DNA of 64,000 nucleotides from Actinomycetota bacterium (GCA_029850535.1 JARCRU010000133.1:25925-89924); one strand, 5' to 3'. Positions 24,704 to 59,528 are shown, counted from the stretch's first letter. Program-made: numbers and translations. The notes: generated by a model from the letters alone, not told the origin.

Positions 24704-25468
24704 TCAGCGACGCGCAAAGAGTCGCGCGGCGCCGCGCAGGGTCCCCTCGTTGTCGTTGAATTCCACCGGGCACCCGATGGTCGAGAAATCGTCCTCGCGC
24801 AGGTGACGAGCGTTACCCCCGCCCACGTGCACCAGGTCCGCGCGGAACTCGTGGACGAACTGCGCGAACGCGTCGGTCAGCCGGGTCCGCCACATCACCG
24901 GGTCCCTCACCCGCGACGGTTCGCCGAAGACTTCGTCGTAGGTGCCAATATCGCGGTACATCTCGGCACCGACGTCGCGGATCTTCTGACCCTCGCCGTC
25001 CACCACCAGTGAGATGCCCAGTCCCGTCCCCAGCGTGAAGACGAGTTCGCGCCCCCGACCCTGGGCGTATCCGTGGGCCGCCAGGGTCGCGTCGTTCACC
25101 ACGCGCACCCGCGCGCGACATCGCTGCTGGAGTTCGCCCTCCACGTCGTACCCCAGCCACTGCTGATGGATGGCCGGGTCGATGGGCGTCGCGATGCCAC
25201 CGGCACGCGACAGGTTGCCCGGTTCGATGACGCGCCCGTCGGCCATGTCACCGGGGAACCCCACGCCCGCGACGTCGCATCCGCTTTCGTTGACCAACCG
25301 GGCAACCACTTCGATCAACCGCGAGGGCACACAGGGATAGGGCGTGGCGATGCGCGCCACGCCTCCTCGCAGGTGACCGTCGCGATCAACCAGGCAGTAC
25401 TTGATGGACGTGGCCCCGATGTCGACCGCGAACACCGGGCCGTCGCCCGAGATCGCCGATTCCGCCAT
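24704..25468 (-). CDS. ROK-family sugar kinase (polyphosphate glucokinase-like)
   Basis: AVDIGATSIK, GVGFPG, VVNDATLA, TLGTGLG, HVGGGNA. Confidence 0.82.
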   Translation of the reverse strand: MAESAISGDGPVFAVDIGATSIKYCLVDRDGHLRGGVARIATPYPCVPSRLIEVVARLVNESGCDVAGVGFPGDMADGRVIEPGNLSRAGGIATPIDPAIHQQWLGYDVEGELQQRCRARVRVVNDATLAAHGYAQGRGRELVFTLGTGLGISLVVDGEGQKIRDVGAEMYRDIGTYDEVFGEPSRVRDPVMWRTRLTDAFAQFVHEFRADLVHVGGGNARHLREDDFSTIGCPVEFNDNEGTLRGAARLFARR

Positions 25469-30090: not shown

Positions 30091-30873
30091 ATGAGCAGCC
30101 GCCTCGACGATCTCGACCTGTCGCAATCGCTGTCCGCCGCCGAATCCGAGAAGCGCGTCCTCGCGGCGCAGAAGCGCCTCCTGCACTTGCGCCTCTTCAG
30201 CGCCGGACTACTCGGTCCCGCGCCCCACGCGCCAGGTCTCGTGGTCCTCTTCGAGGGCTTCGACGCGGCGGGCAAGGGCGGCGCCATTCGACGATTGACG
30301 TCCGGACTCGACCCGCGCCACGTTCGCGTGGTCCCCGTCTCCACGCCCACCGCCGAGGAACTGCGCCACCACTTCCTCTGGCGCTTCTCACCCTCGTTGC
30401 CGGGGCGGGGCGCCATGACCGTCTACGACCGTTCCTGGTACGGGCGCCTCCTCGTCGAACGCGTCGACCAACTCATCGACGACGACGTCGTCTCTCGGTC
30501 GGCGAAGGAGATCAACAATTTTGAGGACGCGTTGGTCAACGACGGCGTGACCCTCGTCAAATTCTGGATGCACATCTCGGCCGAGGAGCAACTGCGTCGT
30601 TTCAACGACCGCGCTAGCACTCCCTCCAAACAGTGGAAGCTCACCGAGGAAGATTGGCACAATCGCTCGCTGCGCCCCCAGTACCTGCACGCGCTCAAGG
30701 ACATGATCAACTGGACCGACCACTCGCACGCCCACTGGGACCTGGTCGCCGGAGAGGACAAGCGTTTCGCCCGCGTCTACGTGCTCGAAACTCTCATCAA
30801 ACGCTGGGAGCACGACCTCGAGCGTCGTGGTTTCGAGGTCCCGCCCTCGCACGGGACCAATTACCTCGCGTGA
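30091..30873 (+). CDS. ppk2: Polyphosphate kinase 2 family
   Basis: FEGFDAAGKGG (Walker A), YDRSWYGR (Walker B), KFWMHIS.EEQ..RF, WKLTEEDW. Confidence 0.92.
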   Translation: MSSRLDDLDLSQSLSAAESEKRVLAAQKRLLHLRLFSAGLLGPAPHAPGLVVLFEGFDAAGKGGAIRRLTSGLDPRHVRVVPVSTPTAEELRHHFLWRFSPSLPGRGAMTVYDRSWYGRLLVERVDQLIDDDVVSRSAKEINNFEDALVNDGVTLVKFWMHISAEEQLRRFNDRASTPSKQWKLTEEDWHNRSLRPQYLHALKDMINWTDHSHAHWDLVAGEDKRFARVYVLETLIKRWEHDLERRGFEVPPSHGTNYLA

Positions 30874-30910
30874 GGCCCCATCTCTCTAGACTGACGTCAG
30901 TGATGGGAGC

Positions 30911-31501
30911 GTGATGGCGAAGAAGAATTCCGACAAGAAGAGCGCGGACAAGAAGAATTCCGACAAGAAGAGCGCGGACAAGGGTTCGAAGAACGCCAAG
31001 GCGACGAACCCGAAGGCGAAAAAGGTGCGCATCGGCGTGGTCGACACGACGTTCGCCCGTTACGACATGGGTCAAGCGGCCTGCGACGAACTCGCCATCT
31101 GCCCCGGCTACAACAAGACCTTCAAGGTGATCACGAAGACGGTGCCCGGCTTCAAGGACCTCGCCGTCGCCGCCTTGAACATGATCGAGGAGGACGGTTG
31201 CTCGATCGTGATCGCCCTGGGCATGCCCGGTTCGGCGCCGATCGACAAGCAGTGCGCCCACGAAGCCGCCCAGGGCATCATGCAGGCCCAACTCTTCACC
31301 GGGACGCCTATCCTCGAGGTCTTCGTGCACGAGGACGAGGCCAGCGACCCCAAGATCCTGGCGAGCGTCTTCGAGAACCGATCGCGCAAGCACGCCCGCA
31401 ACGCCTACTGGATGCTCTTCGAGCCCGAACAATTGCGCCGACGCGCCGGACAGGGTATCCGGCAAGGATTCGATGACGCCGGCCCGCTGCAGTTGAAGTA
31501 G
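30911..31501 (+). CDS. ribC: Archaeal-type riboflavin synthase (lumazine-synthase fold) with Lys-rich N-terminal extension
   Basis: IGVVDTTFARYDM, TVPGFKDLAVA, ALGMPG, CAHEA, EVFVHEDEA, AGQGIRQGFDDAGP match the Methanocaldococcus-type RibC signature as I recall it. Confidence 0.88.
   Translation: MMAKKNSDKKSADKKNSDKKSADKGSKNAKATNPKAKKVRIGVVDTTFARYDMGQAACDELAICPGYNKTFKVITKTVPGFKDLAVAALNMIEEDGCSIVIALGMPGSAPIDKQCAHEAAQGIMQAQLFTGTPILEVFVHEDEASDPKILASVFENRSRKHARNAYWMLFEPEQLRRRAGQGIRQGFDDAGPLQLK
30920..30979 (+). repeat. Perfect 30-bp tandem duplication (2 copies) encoding KKNSDKKSAD twice
   Basis: aagaagaattccgacaagaagagcgcggac at 30920-30949 and 30950-30979. Confidence 0.95.
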
Positions 31502-31511
31502 GTAGGACAAC

Positions 31512-32720
31512 ATGGCTGAAGCCGTCCTCGTCGCCGCCGGTCGCACACCGATCGGTCGGGCCTTCAAGGGGTCACTCGTCGACGAGCGGCCCGATGACCT
31601 CACGGCCCACGTCGTGAGTCAGGTGCTCGAGCAAGTGCCCGAACTCGATCCCCACATGGTCGAGGACCTGCTGGTGGGCTGCGGCCAACCGGCGGGAGAG
31701 GGCGGGTTCAACCTGGCGCGCGTCGTCGCGGTGCTGGCCGGACTCGACGACGTCCCCGGCGTCACCGTGAATCGCTACTGCTCATCGTCCCTGCAGACGA
31801 TCCGCATGGCCGCGCACGCCATTCGCGCGGGTGAGGGTGACGTGTTCGTCGCGGCCGGGGTCGAGACCATCTCGCGTTTCGGAGCGGGCATGTCCGACGT
31901 GGACGCCGCCGCCAATCCTCGTTTCGCCGAGGCGCGCGAACGCAGCGTGCGACGCTCCTTCGAGGGGGCCGACCCCTGGACGCCGCCCGCCGGTCTACCC
32001 GACATCTACATCGCCATGGGTCAAACCGCGGAGAACGTGGCTCAACTCGAGGGCGTGAGCCGCTCGGAGATGGACGAATTCGCCCTGCGCTCCCAGGAAC
32101 TCGCCGTCGCGCACCAGCGAAGTGGTTTCTTCGCGCGCGAGATCGTGCCGGTGACACGCCGCGACGGGAGCCTCGTCGACACCGACGACGGGCCTCGCGC
32201 CGACACCTCGATGCAGCGGCTCTCGTCGCTCGCACCCGTCTTTCGCGCCGACGGCACCGTCACAGCGGGGAACGCCTGCCCACTCAACGACGGCGCCGCG
32301 GCCGTGATCGTGATGAGTGACGTACGCGCACGTGAACTCGGCATCCGACCCCGGGCGCGCATCGTCGCCTCGGGACTGAGCGGACTCAATCCCGAGATCA
32401 TGGGACTCGGCCCCATCGAGGCGAGTCGACAGGCCCTAGCTCGTGCGCACCTCACCATGAAGGACATCGACCTCGTCGAGATCAACGAGGCCTTCGCCGC
32501 GCAGGTCCTGCCGAGCGCTCGGCACTTGGGCGTACCACTCGAGAAACTCAACATCCGTGGCGGGGCCATCGCCCTCGGCCACCCCTTCGGCATGACGGGG
32601 GCGCGGATTATGACCACCCTGTTGCACTCGCTCGAGGAATCGGGTCTGCGCTACGGGCTCGAGACCATGTGCGTCGGCGGCGGACAGGGAATGGCCATGA
32701 TCATCGAACGACTCGACTGA
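31512..32720 (+). CDS. Acetyl-CoA C-acyltransferase (thiolase)
   Basis: NRYCSSS, NDGAAA, EINEAFA, GHPFGMTG, MCVGGGQG. Confidence 0.95.
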   Translation: MAEAVLVAAGRTPIGRAFKGSLVDERPDDLTAHVVSQVLEQVPELDPHMVEDLLVGCGQPAGEGGFNLARVVAVLAGLDDVPGVTVNRYCSSSLQTIRMAAHAIRAGEGDVFVAAGVETISRFGAGMSDVDAAANPRFAEARERSVRRSFEGADPWTPPAGLPDIYIAMGQTAENVAQLEGVSRSEMDEFALRSQELAVAHQRSGFFAREIVPVTRRDGSLVDTDDGPRADTSMQRLSSLAPVFRADGTVTAGNACPLNDGAAAVIVMSDVRARELGIRPRARIVASGLSGLNPEIMGLGPIEASRQALARAHLTMKDIDLVEINEAFAAQVLPSARHLGVPLEKLNIRGGAIALGHPFGMTGARIMTTLLHSLEESGLRYGLETMCVGGGQGMAMIIERLD

Positions 32721-50358: not shown

Positions 50359-51167
50359 GAGGCGAGTACCGCGTGCCGGACCTTCGAGGTCCACGCGGGC
50401 CAGAGGTCGCGCGCCCACGGTCCGAAGTCGACGGTGCTGGTGGCCACGAGGCAAATGCCCTCATCCACGTTCGCGAGCAACATCGCGCCACTGCGGCCAA
50501 AGTGTCCAAAGGACGAGGGGGGCCAATCACCCATCCAGTGCAGCTTGTCGCCGCGCAGCTCGACGCCCAGGCCCCAGGGGCACGGGGCGAAACGCCCGAA
50601 ACCCGGCACGACGCCCGCGAGCTCCGGCAAGAAGGCCGTCGTCGTCGCGTCGCGGCGCTGCGTCGTCGTCAACGTGGGCTGGACCCACTCGCGCGCGAAG
50701 TCCGCGAGGTCCCTGGTCGAACCGACGGCCCCCTCGGCGGCACGACCCCGCAGACTCGTGGTCGAGAGCCCCAGGGGAGTGAGCACTCGCTCATCGAGCC
50801 ACTCGCCGACGCGCTCGCCCTGCGCCAGGTGGGCCGCGGCCAGATCGATCCCGACGTTGGAATAGACCCGTCGGACGCCGGGCGCCACCACCGGGTCGCC
50901 GCTCTCCAGCCCCAGTCCGCTCGCGTGGGCTAACAAGTGTGCCAAGGTCGAGCCCTCGGGACCGAGCGCTTCGTCGAGGCGAGCGCGCGCCTCGTGAAGT
51001 TCGATGGCCCCCGCCCACGCCGTGAGGAGTTTGCTGACCGACGCCCACGCCCGCGGAGCGTCGAGGTCACCGTGCGCCGCCACGGTCTGCCAGGTGCCTG
51101 AGCGCCGGGCCGAGACGATGACCGCCGGCTCACCCGGCCATCCGACTGCGAGCAACGACGGGTCCAC
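50355..51167 (-). CDS. Serine hydrolase (beta-lactamase family)
   Basis: ASVSK (SxxK), LLAHASGL, YSN, FGHFGRSG. Confidence 0.88.
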   Translation of the reverse strand: MDPSLLAVGWPGEPAVIVSARRSGTWQTVAAHGDLDAPRAWASVSKLLTAWAGAIELHEARARLDEALGPEGSTLAHLLAHASGLGLESGDPVVAPGVRRVYSNVGIDLAAAHLAQGERVGEWLDERVLTPLGLSTTSLRGRAAEGAVGSTRDLADFAREWVQPTLTTTQRRDATTTAFLPELAGVVPGFGRFAPCPWGLGVELRGDKLHWMGDWPPSSFGHFGRSGAMLLANVDEGICLVATSTVDFGPWARDLWPAWTSKVRHAVLAS

Positions 51168-51204
51168 GTCCTCCAATCTACCGGGACGACCTAAAGTCTC
51201 CGGG

Positions 51205-52119
51205 GTGATCACTGTGCTCAGCGGAGGCGTCGGGGCGGCGCGGCTACTGCGCGCCCTGCGTCGACACGACGCCGACGTCGAACTCAGCGCCGTGGTGAAC
51301 GTGGGCGATGACCTCGTGATGCACGGACTCACCATCTGTCCCGACCTCGATACCATCATGTACACCCTCGCCGGGGCCCATAACGACGAGCTCGGCTGGG
51401 GACTCGCGAACGAGACGTGGCGCGTGATGCAGCGTCTGGGCGAACTCGGGGGCGAGAACTGGTTCGCCCTGGGTGACCTCGACCTCGCCACGCACCTCTA
51501 TCGCAGCCAGCGCCTCGCCCAGGGCGCCACCAAGACCGACGTCAGTCGCGAGCTCGCCGCGAGGTTCGGTCTCGACGTGGCGCTCCTGCCCGTGAGTGAT
51601 GACCCCATCGCCACCGAATTCGATACGGCGCTGGGGCCGCTGAGCTTCCAGGAATATTTCGTGCGCCATCGCCACGACGTTGTCGTCAACGCGGTGCGAG
51701 TGCGCGGCGCGGCGGCCGCGGTCCTGAGCGACCCGGCGCGCGACGCCCTCGAGCGCTCGTCGCGCATCGTCATCGCGCCGTCGAATCCGCTGATCTCGAT
51801 CGACCCTATCCTGCGGGTCCCCGGCGTCGCCGACATCCTGACTCGCCGTCGCGATGACGTCGTCGCGGTCTCCCCCCTGGTGGGGGGCGCGGCGATCAAG
51901 GGCCCCGCGGACCGACTCATGCGAGAACTCGGCCACGAGGTCAACGCCGTGGGCGTCGCGCGCTTCTACCAGGGAATGGTGGGCACGATGATCATCGACG
52001 TCGTCGACGCCGATCAGGCCGACGCGGTGGCGAACACTGGCTGCGACGTTCGCGTCACCACCACGGTGATGTCCCGCGACGACCACGCCCTGGCCCTGGC
52101 CGACGCGGTGCGCTCGTGA
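51205..52119 (+). CDS. cofD: 2-phospho-L-lactate transferase (F420 biosynthesis)
   Basis: LSGGVGAAR, NVGDD, ICPDLDT, WFALGDLDLATH, APSNPLISI, IKGPA. Confidence 0.94.
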   Translation: MITVLSGGVGAARLLRALRRHDADVELSAVVNVGDDLVMHGLTICPDLDTIMYTLAGAHNDELGWGLANETWRVMQRLGELGGENWFALGDLDLATHLYRSQRLAQGATKTDVSRELAARFGLDVALLPVSDDPIATEFDTALGPLSFQEYFVRHRHDVVVNAVRVRGAAAAVLSDPARDALERSSRIVIAPSNPLISIDPILRVPGVADILTRRRDDVVAVSPLVGGAAIKGPADRLMRELGHEVNAVGVARFYQGMVGTMIIDVVDADQADAVANTGCDVRVTTTVMSRDDHALALADAVRS

Positions 52120-52826
52120 ACCAGTTGCTCCTCTTCGCCCTCGACGGCGTCGGTGAGATCACCGCTGGTGACGACCTGGTGGGCGCCTTCCTCGACGCCC
52201 TGGACGCGGGCGCCCACGAACTCGCGCACCACGACGTCGTCGTCGTCACCTCCAAGGTGGTCTCGAAGTCCGAGGGCCGGGTCGTGGCCTTCGACGGTAC
52301 CGCCGAACACCGAGAACGACTCATCGTCCAGGAGTCGACACGCATCCTGCGCCGCCGCGGCCCCCTGCGCATCACCGAGACGCCCCACGGCTTCGTCAAC
52401 GCCAACGCCGGCATCGACCACTCCAACACCGCCGAGGGGACCGCGGTGCTGCTGCCCAAGGATCCCGACCGTTCCGCGCGGCGATTCCGGGCCGAGATCG
52501 CGCGTCGCCGCGGCGTCGAGGTCGGGGTCATCGTAACCGACACGTTTGGTCGCACGTGGCGCAACGGGGTCGTCGACGTGGCGTTGGGCTGCGCCGGGCT
52601 GCGCCCGATCCTGGACCTGCGCGGCACGGTGGACGCCCTCGGACGCACCCTGGAGGTGACCGAGGTCGCCCTCGTCGACGAAGTGGCCGCGGCCGCCAAT
52701 CTGGTGCTCGCCAAGGATGCCGGTACGCCCTTCGCCGTGGTGCGAGGGCTCTCCGAGCGCTACTTCGGCGAGGGGTCCGTGGGCGAACACGTCGTGCGCG
52801 CTGCCCACGGTGACCTGTTTCGCTAG
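52116..52826 (+). CDS. cofE: Coenzyme F420-0:L-glutamate ligase (single domain)
   Basis: VVTSKVVSKSEGR, ANAGIDHSN, LLPKDPD, TDTFGRTWRNG, DEVAAAANL. Confidence 0.94.
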   Translation: MNQLLLFALDGVGEITAGDDLVGAFLDALDAGAHELAHHDVVVVTSKVVSKSEGRVVAFDGTAEHRERLIVQESTRILRRRGPLRITETPHGFVNANAGIDHSNTAEGTAVLLPKDPDRSARRFRAEIARRRGVEVGVIVTDTFGRTWRNGVVDVALGCAGLRPILDLRGTVDALGRTLEVTEVALVDEVAAAANLVLAKDAGTPFAVVRGLSERYFGEGSVGEHVVRAAHGDLFR

Positions 52827-58613: not shown

Positions 58614-59528
58614 TCAGAGCAGCGATGCGGCGACGCCGTCCAAGATGTCGTCCTCAGAACTGAGGAGTTCGTGCGCCGCGAACCGGTCCATAACGGCCTC
58701 GAGGATGAAGAGACCAGCCACCAGCACGTCCTCGCGGCCGCGCACCATTCCGGGCAACTCCAGACGCTGCGCGGGACTCAAGGCGCCGAGGCGTTCGCGC
58801 CAGCTCCGCACGTCCTCGCGCGAGAGACGGCGAAGGTGCACGGCCGCGCGGTCGTACACGCTCGAGCCCGCGTCGAGTTGCGCGAGGGTCGCCACCGTGC
58901 CCGCCAGACCGACCAGTCGAGCCGCGCCGACGAGGTCCCTGAATTGCGGCACGGCCTCGAACGCCCGGTCGAGCTCGGCCTCGATCATCGCCTGCGCCGC
59001 GCGCGTCCCCTCGGGCTCGACGACGCCCGCCCCCAGCGCGCGCTCGGTCACCCGCACGCACCCCAACTGCATCGAATAACTCCGGACCTCCCCGTTCAGG
59101 CTCACCGCCAACTCGGTCGACCCACCCCCGATGTCGACGATCAACGTCGCGCGCGAGTCGGGGGCCAACCCCCTCGTCGCCCCGGCGTAGGAGAAGGCGG
59201 CCTCTTCGGTGCCCTTGAGCACGCGAGCCTCGACCCCGGTGATCTGCGCGGCTCGAGCCAGGAACTGCGCACCGTTGATCGCGTCGCGCACCGCCGAGGT
59301 CGCCACCAGTAGTCCGCGAGTGACCCCGTGCGCATCCATCATCTGGCGGTACTCGCTCAACGTCGCGTAACTGCGCTCGAGCGCCTCGGGCGAGAGATTG
59401 CCCGAGGCGTCCACGCCCGCCGACAAGCGGGTGATGCGCATCTCGCGCTGCAGCGTCGTGGCGTCGTCGGCGACGATCAAGAGGCGCGTGGAATTCGAAC
59501 CGCAGTCGAGGACGGCGACGCTAGCCAC
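58614..59528 (-). CDS. ppx: Ppx/GppA exopolyphosphatase family
   Basis: LDCGSNSTRL, ATSAVRDA, EEA, VDIGGGSTE, GCVR, SEDDILDG. Confidence 0.93.
   Translation of the reverse strand: MASVAVLDCGSNSTRLLIVADDATTLQREMRITRLSAGVDASGNLSPEALERSYATLSEYRQMMDAHGVTRGLLVATSAVRDAINGAQFLARAAQITGVEARVLKGTEEAAFSYAGATRGLAPDSRATLIVDIGGGSTELAVSLNGEVRSYSMQLGCVRVTERALGAGVVEPEGTRAAQAMIEAELDRAFEAVPQFRDLVGAARLVGLAGTVATLAQLDAGSSVYDRAAVHLRRLSREDVRSWRERLGALSPAQRLELPGMVRGREDVLVAGLFILEAVMDRFAAHELLSSEDDILDGVAASLL

Follow-up and report, generated by a model that had tools for sequence, protein, structure and literature searches.

It is very probable that ribC, a gene in the 64,000-nucleotide stretch of DNA analysed here (the window; C133:25925-89924), encodes a functional archaeal-type riboflavin synthase, that this is the only riboflavin synthase of its bacterial host, and that the gene was acquired once, displacing the bacterial ribE. 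We infer its activity, pentameric state, stereochemistry and donor; the gene itself is native to the host, and its family membership, its neighbourhood and the closed ribE slot elsewhere in the genome can be read directly (Table 1).

Table 1. Features of the window and of the contigs carrying the riboflavin and F420 genes (window positions unless a contig is named)
Feature	Location	Strand	Evidence and remarks
ribC, archaeal-type (lumazine-synthase-fold) riboflavin synthase CDS (predicted)	30914..31501	+	195 aa from ATG; TIGR01506, 2b98 identity
Shine-Dalgarno GGGAG	30903..30907	+	6 nt 5' of ATG 30914; direct sequence reading
Lysine-rich N-terminal tail, ~37 aa, MAKKNSDKKSADKKNSDKKSADKGSKNAKATNPKAKK	30914..31024	+	Predicted disordered; absent from archaeal enzyme
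Perfect 30-bp tandem repeat, 2.1 copies, 15-bp sub-period	30920..30982	+	Tandem Repeats Finder: 100% matches, score 126
Catalytic lumazine-synthase-fold domain	31031..31489	+	Residues 41-193 of 196-aa frame; TIGR01506 match C133:56955-57413
PPK2-family polyphosphate kinase or polyphosphate:AMP phosphotransferase	30091..30873	+	TIGR03708 292 bits, TIGR03709 195 bits, both under cut-offs
Acetyl-CoA C-acetyltransferase (thiolase)	31512..32720	+	NF005890, 664 bits vs cut-off 580
ORF, 875 aa	36383..39013	-	No NCBIfam match
cofD	51004..52119	+	TIGR01819, 297 bits, over cut-off
cofE, short form	52116..52826	+	TIGR01916, 228 bits, over cut-off
ROK-family polyphosphate-glucokinase-like gene	24704..25468	-	
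Exopolyphosphatase gene	58614..59528	-	
rpe	C22		TIGR01163, 226 bits, over cut-off
ribD, bacterial type	C22		TIGR00326, 323 bits, over cut-off
ribBA	C22		NF006803, 652 bits, over cut-off
ribH (genuine lumazine synthase)	C22:10712-11251		TIGR00114, 147 bits, over cut-off
fbiC	G000:C45:23114-24517		427 bits; fused CofG/CofH, 768-aa frame

Identity and predicted structure of RibC

The likely start of ribC is the ATG at 30914, and a GATCGGAGC-type (GGAG) box precedes the homologous ATG or GTG start in most relatives. An in-frame GTG at 30911 is an alternative start that would add one residue (196 aa).

The NCBIfam model TIGR01506 (ribC_arch), an equivalog model with a curated cut-off of 100.55 bits, matches the ORF with 180.1 bits (E = 2.4e-53) over profile positions 2-151 of 151, and ribC scores 180.4 bits in a profile search of the whole genome. 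The lumazine synthase model TIGR00114 reaches 28.2 bits, below its cut-off of 84.6, and covers profile positions 2-100 of 138 only. Pfam recovers just the shared DMRL_synthase fold (PF00885, 54 bits). Neither TIGR00187 nor Lum_binding matches the protein in NCBIfam and Pfam searches, and its sequence does not resemble that of bacterial RibE enzymes. The closest sequence match in the PDB is the riboflavin synthase of M. jannaschii (2b98; E = 7e-51, residues 40-193), with 54-55% identity across the catalytic domain.

The original prediction had described an archaeal RibC pattern running through the whole frame, unlike RibE or ordinary lumazine synthase, and the motifs that it quoted are all found: IGVVDTTFARYDM, TVPGFKDLAVA, ALGMPG, CAHEA, EVFVHEDEA and AGQGIRQGFDDAGP. 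The profile comparison proposed with it was run, and the archaeal model wins, far above the lumazine synthase model. By these sequence criteria the assignment of the ORF to the archaeal pentameric-type riboflavin synthase family, and to neither RibE nor lumazine synthase, is confirmed. We also checked the residues that are conserved family-wide (DTxF, TVPGxKDL, G..G..D, E, R..H..N, AG.G.RQG). Of 29 family columns with a conservation of at least 85% among 35 diverse members, RibC keeps 28; the lone exception is T75, which replaces M. jannaschii R36 at a position that is variable across the clade.

The AlphaFold2 model of RibC (28 homologues), which represents the monomer, has pLDDT values of 85-96 over residues 38-178. 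Foldseek places 2b98/2b99 at the top of its list, with TM scores of 0.90-0.95 (target-normalised 0.90-0.94) and an rmsd of 1.1-2.5 Å. The top 17 matches are all chains with the M. jannaschii enzyme or a design derived from it, and lumazine synthases rank next, with 16-25% identity. The modelled fold is the lumazine-synthase-like α/β fold, and the archaeal enzyme is the nearest solved structure. RibC is presumably a pentamer. By homology to M. jannaschii RibC, its active sites would be situated at the subunit interfaces, and the stereochemistry of its pentacyclic intermediate would be opposite to that of trimeric RibE.

The riboflavin pathway of the host

The host genome is a 2.48-Mb Acidimicrobiales MAG in 146 contigs, with 93.6% completeness and 3.9% contamination. 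Its contig C22 has the gene order metK-priA-def-fmt-rpe-ribD-ribBA-ribH. Actinobacteria normally carry ribE between ribD and ribBA, and other Acidimicrobiia have it about 1.4 kb 5' of ribH (e.g., G003, G134 and G276). On C22, the stop codon of ribD overlaps the ATG of ribBA; the ribE slot is closed and holds no remnant. TIGR00187, the model for bacterial ribE, gives neither a match nor a first-pass candidate in the whole MAG. Because the MAG is only 93.6% complete, the absence of ribE rests on the closed operon junction and on closed relatives (see below). The original prediction had suggested looking for the trimeric enzyme in this genome, and both the profile search and the closed slot indicate that it is missing.

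Riboflavin synthesis is the sole use of RibB and RibH, and a riboflavin synthase is therefore required. Homology and genomic context suggest that RibC catalyses this step and is, in all likelihood, the only riboflavin synthase of the host. The predicted pathway is a mosaic in which bacterial steps 1-4 are followed by an archaeal-type last step. RibC would convert two molecules of 6,7-dimethyl-8-ribityllumazine, supplied by the bacterial-type RibH, into riboflavin and 5-amino-6-ribitylaminouracil. The latter would go back to RibH and could also feed FbiC for F420 synthesis.

Genes for flavin transporters are usually marked by an FMN riboswitch. Searches of the rib operon, the window and the whole genome gave none, and riboswitch control of the rib genes was rejected on this basis. 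In this clade, RibH carries a conserved N-terminal extension (about 30 residues) that begins with MTSSDET.(F/L)D and overlaps the end of ribBA (C22:10712-11251; loci L088-L115). The subgroup whose RibC lacks the tail has MAGSD at the start of this extension.

A protein with a riboflavin synthase fold might have diverged to bind lumazine or flavin, or to catalyse another reaction, with the host taking up its riboflavin. We consider this very unlikely. Although Thr at the R36 position, itself variable in the clade, and a lineage-specific polybasic tail absent from the archaeal enzyme would both be compatible with a new function, the other 28 conserved positions are kept, the dN/dS of the RibC core against seven relatives is 0.06-0.25, and the TIGR01506 score is far above a cut-off set at equivalog level. 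Moreover, RibB and RibH are intact, and lumazine would lead nowhere if the host had no riboflavin synthase; the genome-wide lack of an FMN riboswitch also speaks against uptake.

Distribution of ribC and ribE

We searched 301 evenly sampled Acidimicrobiia genomes for TIGR01506 and TIGR00187. Fifteen of them pass the TIGR01506 cut-off: each of the 14 members sampled from the window's family, which belong to three genera, and a single genome of a different family in the same order. None of the 15 ribC carriers has ribE, versus 263 of the 286 other Acidimicrobiia (Fisher p = 2e-15, uncorrected for phylogeny, the pattern reflecting one or few events). In a sample of the whole phylum (401 genomes), ribC occurs only in the window's genome and one congener.

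Twenty further carriers were reached via their loci, and 18 of these, including three closed chromosomes, are without ribE. The genomes G683 and G686 (those of loci L068 and L072) have, in addition to ribC, a ribE-like match of 147-150 bits, slightly under the cut-off (G683:C3:433069-433593 and G686:C2:30543-31100), in frames of 411-412 aa. Both are Acidimicrobiales with larger genomes (4.2-4.3 Mb). They may be intermediates in which the two enzymes coexist, or their ribE may be fused or diverged.

Of the 301 Acidimicrobiia, 23 lack both types of riboflavin synthase, bacterial and archaeal (e.g., G014, G024, G051, G055, G095 and G131; family f3), and some of these 23 are closed single-contig genomes. 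These organisms may be riboflavin auxotrophs or may have a third solution.

The distribution also bears on whether RibC is an accessory second riboflavin synthase, raising the flavin supply for a special purpose (for example, F420 or a flavin-derived metabolite), with ribE hidden in the unassembled ~6% of the genome. Such a role would have a precedent in RibE2, an additional enzyme of a roseoflavin cluster (PMC11039241), and both the incompleteness of the MAG and the two genomes with a ribE-like match leave some room for it. It is nevertheless less likely still than a diverged function: the ribD stop overlaps the ribBA start where ribE would be, 14 of 14 sampled family genomes and three closed chromosomes have no ribE, and the neighbours of ribC are PPK2 and a thiolase rather than a secondary-metabolite cluster.

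Host genome and gene neighbourhood

ribC lies in the middle of C133, a contig of 114 kb. A scan of 185,579 species genomes gave more than 587 relatives, and synteny was counted in the best 80. Nearly all of these 80 bear the label Acidimicrobiales or Acidimicrobiaceae and are MAGs of peat, palsa, fen or soil origin; the closed chromosomes OY970319, OY969907 and OY970152 are among them. The synteny of the contig with over 50 genomes of Acidimicrobiales, of which three are closed chromosomes, shows that the host is a bacterium. ribC is native to it. Its neighbours are ordinary bacterial genes for a GT2 glycosyltransferase, a PPK2-family polyphosphate kinase, a thiolase, Ada, phosphomannomutase and FtsH. 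The GC3 of the ribC ORF is 0.89 and that of neighbouring genes 0.82-0.90, in agreement with the earlier remark that the codon style matches that of host genes.

The gap between PPK2 and ribC is 41 bp, and PPK2 is found 5' of ribC in 43 of the 80 best relatives (of more than 587). The thiolase gene starts 10 bp past the ribC stop, and a thiolase lies 10-70 bp 3' of ribC in 50 of the same best 80. There is no terminator-like site on the + strand between ribC and the thiolase gene, and a scan for promoters and terminators gave nothing above chance; the two genes are probably co-transcribed. None of the best 80 relatives has a rib gene within 6 kb of ribC, which is a stand-alone gene. The 875-aa ORF on the opposite strand (Table 1) recurs a few kilobases downstream of ribC in 30 of these 80 relatives, with 51-65% identity.

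A subgroup with about 72% identity, named 'MDL' (L065-L083, L086), has ribC in a second conserved context that is likewise without a link to rib genes: a divergent class-III aminotransferase gene, ribC, and genes for an acyl-CoA dehydrogenase and an AMP-dependent ligase. An FMN_bind_2 protein is encoded near ribC in L065.

That ribC is an artefact, from an archaeal contig or a chimeric assembly binned into a bacterial MAG, has next to no probability despite the contamination estimate of 3.9% and a family otherwise typical of archaea, as the gene sits mid-contig among bacterial genes (FtsH, Ada, thiolase and PPK2), shares the GC3 of its neighbours and is syntenic in 50 of 80 independent assemblies (the best 80 of more than 587 relatives), closed chromosomes included; synteny, composition and closed relatives led us to reject contamination and misassembly.

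Phylogeny and origin of ribC

The TIGR01506 family is small, with 247 clusters at 50% identity (1.84 billion representatives) and 4,780 at 90%. Among the control genomes, only those of M. jannaschii, S. acidocaldarius and M. acetivorans pass the cut-off, and the gene of the 57% identical protein P0127 belongs to a ribB-ribL-ribC-ribH cluster whose contig also bears the archaeal markers S17e and Rpb4. Because only archaeal controls pass and P0127 sits on an archaeal contig, the affinity of the family is archaeal.

We computed a maximum-likelihood tree of 30 Acidimicrobiales sequences, 36 diverse representatives and the M. jannaschii enzyme, rooted with the genome's own RibH. Acidimicrobiales RibC forms one clade (ultrafast bootstrap 98, SH-aLRT 95), and the deeper nodes are not resolved. 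The clade also takes in P0135, and P0131 is its sister; both come from high-GC (66-73%) metagenome contigs that are probably bacterial. The phylogeny called for by the original prediction thus yields one well-supported Acidimicrobiales clade, but its deep nodes leave the donor lineage unplaced. The nearest outgroups are P0131 and P0135. Most probably, the donor was an archaeon.

Within the clade, ribC is under purifying selection and vertically inherited. The original prediction had held that any transfer is old; ameliorated composition, presence of the gene across the family, a single Acidimicrobiales clade and purifying selection all bear this out. Several members of the TIGR01506 family are fusions of 316-408 aa (P0128, P0130 (L119:772-1998), P0168 (L121:561-1511) and P0137), in which an extension of 150-250 aa is N-terminal to the riboflavin synthase domain. 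P0130 comes after a RibL-like (CTP_transf_like) gene, and P0168 lies beside a MerR regulator.

The lysine-rich N-terminal tail

The archaeal enzyme starts 2-4 residues before the first β-strand, whereas 37 residues precede this strand in RibC. The AlphaFold2 model has pLDDT values below 50 for residues 1-33. Within the tail, which it enlarges, the 30-bp repeat codes for KKNSDKKSAD twice. Since P0001, a metagenomic protein with 99% identity, has exactly one repeat unit (10 aa) fewer, the copy number of the repeat is polymorphic.

In 45 of 76 relatives, a GGAG box precedes a shorter K-rich tail that follows the MAKKxKxxKKVK pattern. In the MDL subgroup, RibC has no lysine-rich tail and begins with Met-Asp-Leu at the core; the tails of a few syntenic relatives are not basic. 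Genome-wide, K-dense segments occur in seven ORFs, RibC among them; the others resemble the AKKA-type tails of nucleoid or topoisomerase-like proteins. The translation-initiation region of ribC has a folding energy (dG) of -10.0 kcal/mol, compared with -17.2 ± 4.4 kcal/mol for 35 window genes, of which two are less structured. It is unusually unstructured because the lysine codons are A-rich.

The tail is most likely a slippage-prone, weakly selected extension, and it is possibly favoured for translation initiation, a role at the nucleotide level. A functional polylysine tether, five per pentamer, that binds a polyanion (polyphosphate, nucleic acid or the acidic extension of RibH) seems to us unlikely. 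The tail composition is kept in 45 of 76 relatives and rare in the proteome, the upstream neighbour PPK2 is conserved, and the window includes Ppx and a polyphosphate-glucokinase-like gene, all of which would suit a tether; the non-basic tails of some syntenic relatives would not, and the unstructured initiation region provides a simpler, nucleotide-level explanation. We found no co-variation between the RibH extension and the lysine tail of RibC, as the extension occurs with and without the tail, and electrostatic pairing of RibH and RibC was rejected for this reason. Bacillus has a 'heavy riboflavin synthase' complex that channels substrate; a tether to RibH, if it existed, would recreate this complex by other means.

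F420 and polyphosphate genes

The original prediction had also pointed to F420 genes in the window that draw on the same ribityl-pyrimidine precursor. cofD and cofE are indeed present, but they are 20 kb from ribC, and, to our knowledge, ribityl-pyrimidine is not a substrate of CofD or CofE. The enzyme that consumes 5-amino-6-ribitylaminouracil is FbiC, and fbiC is on contig C45. From its gene content, the host is predicted to make F420 and to share a precursor pool between this pathway and that of riboflavin. Linkage of ribC to F420 or riboflavin genes was rejected, given the 20-kb distance to cofD and cofE, the location of fbiC and the stand-alone position of ribC.

The cofE product is an archaeal-like single-domain form of 236 aa that is missing the C-terminal nitroreductase-like domain and matches the N-terminal half only of the 449-aa actinobacterial FbiB model. 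The cofD match starts at residue 69 of its ORF. Three polyphosphate-related genes are found in the one window, those for the glucokinase-like protein, PPK2 and exopolyphosphatase.

Discussion

The replacement of ribE by ribC has the signature of non-orthologous gene displacement after an old transfer, as judged from gene content and phylogeny. We propose that an ancestor of the Acidimicrobiales clade acquired ribC in a single old event from an archaeon. The composition of the gene would then have ameliorated, and ribC would have settled in two stand-alone contexts, PPK2-ribC-thiolase or aminotransferase-ribC-acyl-CoA dehydrogenase/AMP ligase. Finally, the ancestral ribE would have been deleted from the ribD-ribE-ribBA-ribH operon.

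This would be a clean natural case of non-orthologous displacement in a core vitamin pathway, fixed across an abundant family of peat and soil Acidimicrobiales, with three bacterial-type steps feeding an archaeal-type last step. A lineage that depends wholly on the archaeal type implies that the two enzyme types, with their opposite stereochemistry, are interchangeable in vivo. The clade is also a source of mesophilic bacterial versions for enzymology and for nanocage engineering; the M. jannaschii pentamer is already a design scaffold (PDB 5im5). Metabolic reconstructions that seek ribE alone would wrongly call ribC carriers riboflavin auxotrophs.

The sole published bacterial case of a pentameric-type enzyme that we know of is an accessory copy in Streptomyces. 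This enzyme, RibE2 of Streptomyces davaonensis and S. berlinensis, is an archaeal-like riboflavin synthase encoded in the rosB roseoflavin cluster and attributed to horizontal transfer; it is additional to the canonical bacterial enzyme and boosts the supply of antibiotic precursor (PMC11039241). Reviews still show the pentameric enzyme as archaeal, and one from 2026 gives pentameric riboflavin synthases only for M. jannaschii and M. thermautotrophicus, noting the opposite stereochemistry of the pentacyclic intermediate in pentameric and trimeric enzymes (PMC13151069). Our literature search found no paper that ties Acidimicrobiia to riboflavin synthase, nor the phrase 'archaeal-type riboflavin synthase'.

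The novelty implied by the original prediction was overstated, given that RibE2 is published (PMC11039241) and that JGI already names the Acidimicrobiales RibC proteins riboflavin synthase. Novelty is limited: the enzyme type is known in bacteria, the gene can be annotated automatically, and there is no new chemistry or protein family. The case is that of a bacterial family that, by its gene content, relies solely on an archaeal-type riboflavin synthase.

RibC resembles M. jannaschii RibC (2B98/2B99) in fold, in motifs and in sequence (55% identity over the catalytic domain), and presumably catalyses the same reaction with the same stereochemistry. Unlike the archaeal enzyme, it has a bacterial host, and its gene is situated beside PPK2 and thiolase genes instead of in an archaeal ribB-ribL-ribC-ribH cluster. 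It also differs in its 37-residue disordered lysine-rich tail and in the exchange of R36 for Thr, and it would act downstream of bacterial-type RibD, RibBA and RibH. With Streptomyces RibE2 it shares the occurrence of an archaeal-type riboflavin synthase in an actinobacterium; RibE2 is an accessory copy, whereas Acidimicrobiales RibC appears to serve an entire family as its only riboflavin synthase.

The trimeric enzyme (RibE/RibC-alpha of E. coli and B. subtilis; TIGR00187) catalyses the same overall reaction at the same position in the pathway, but it has an unrelated two-barrel fold, a trimeric assembly, the opposite stereochemistry (PMC13151069) and no sequence similarity to RibC. RibH (TIGR00114, PF00885) has a homologous flavodoxin-like fold. 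In contrast to RibC, the true RibH of this genome passes the lumazine synthase model with 147 bits and is encoded by a separate gene on C22.
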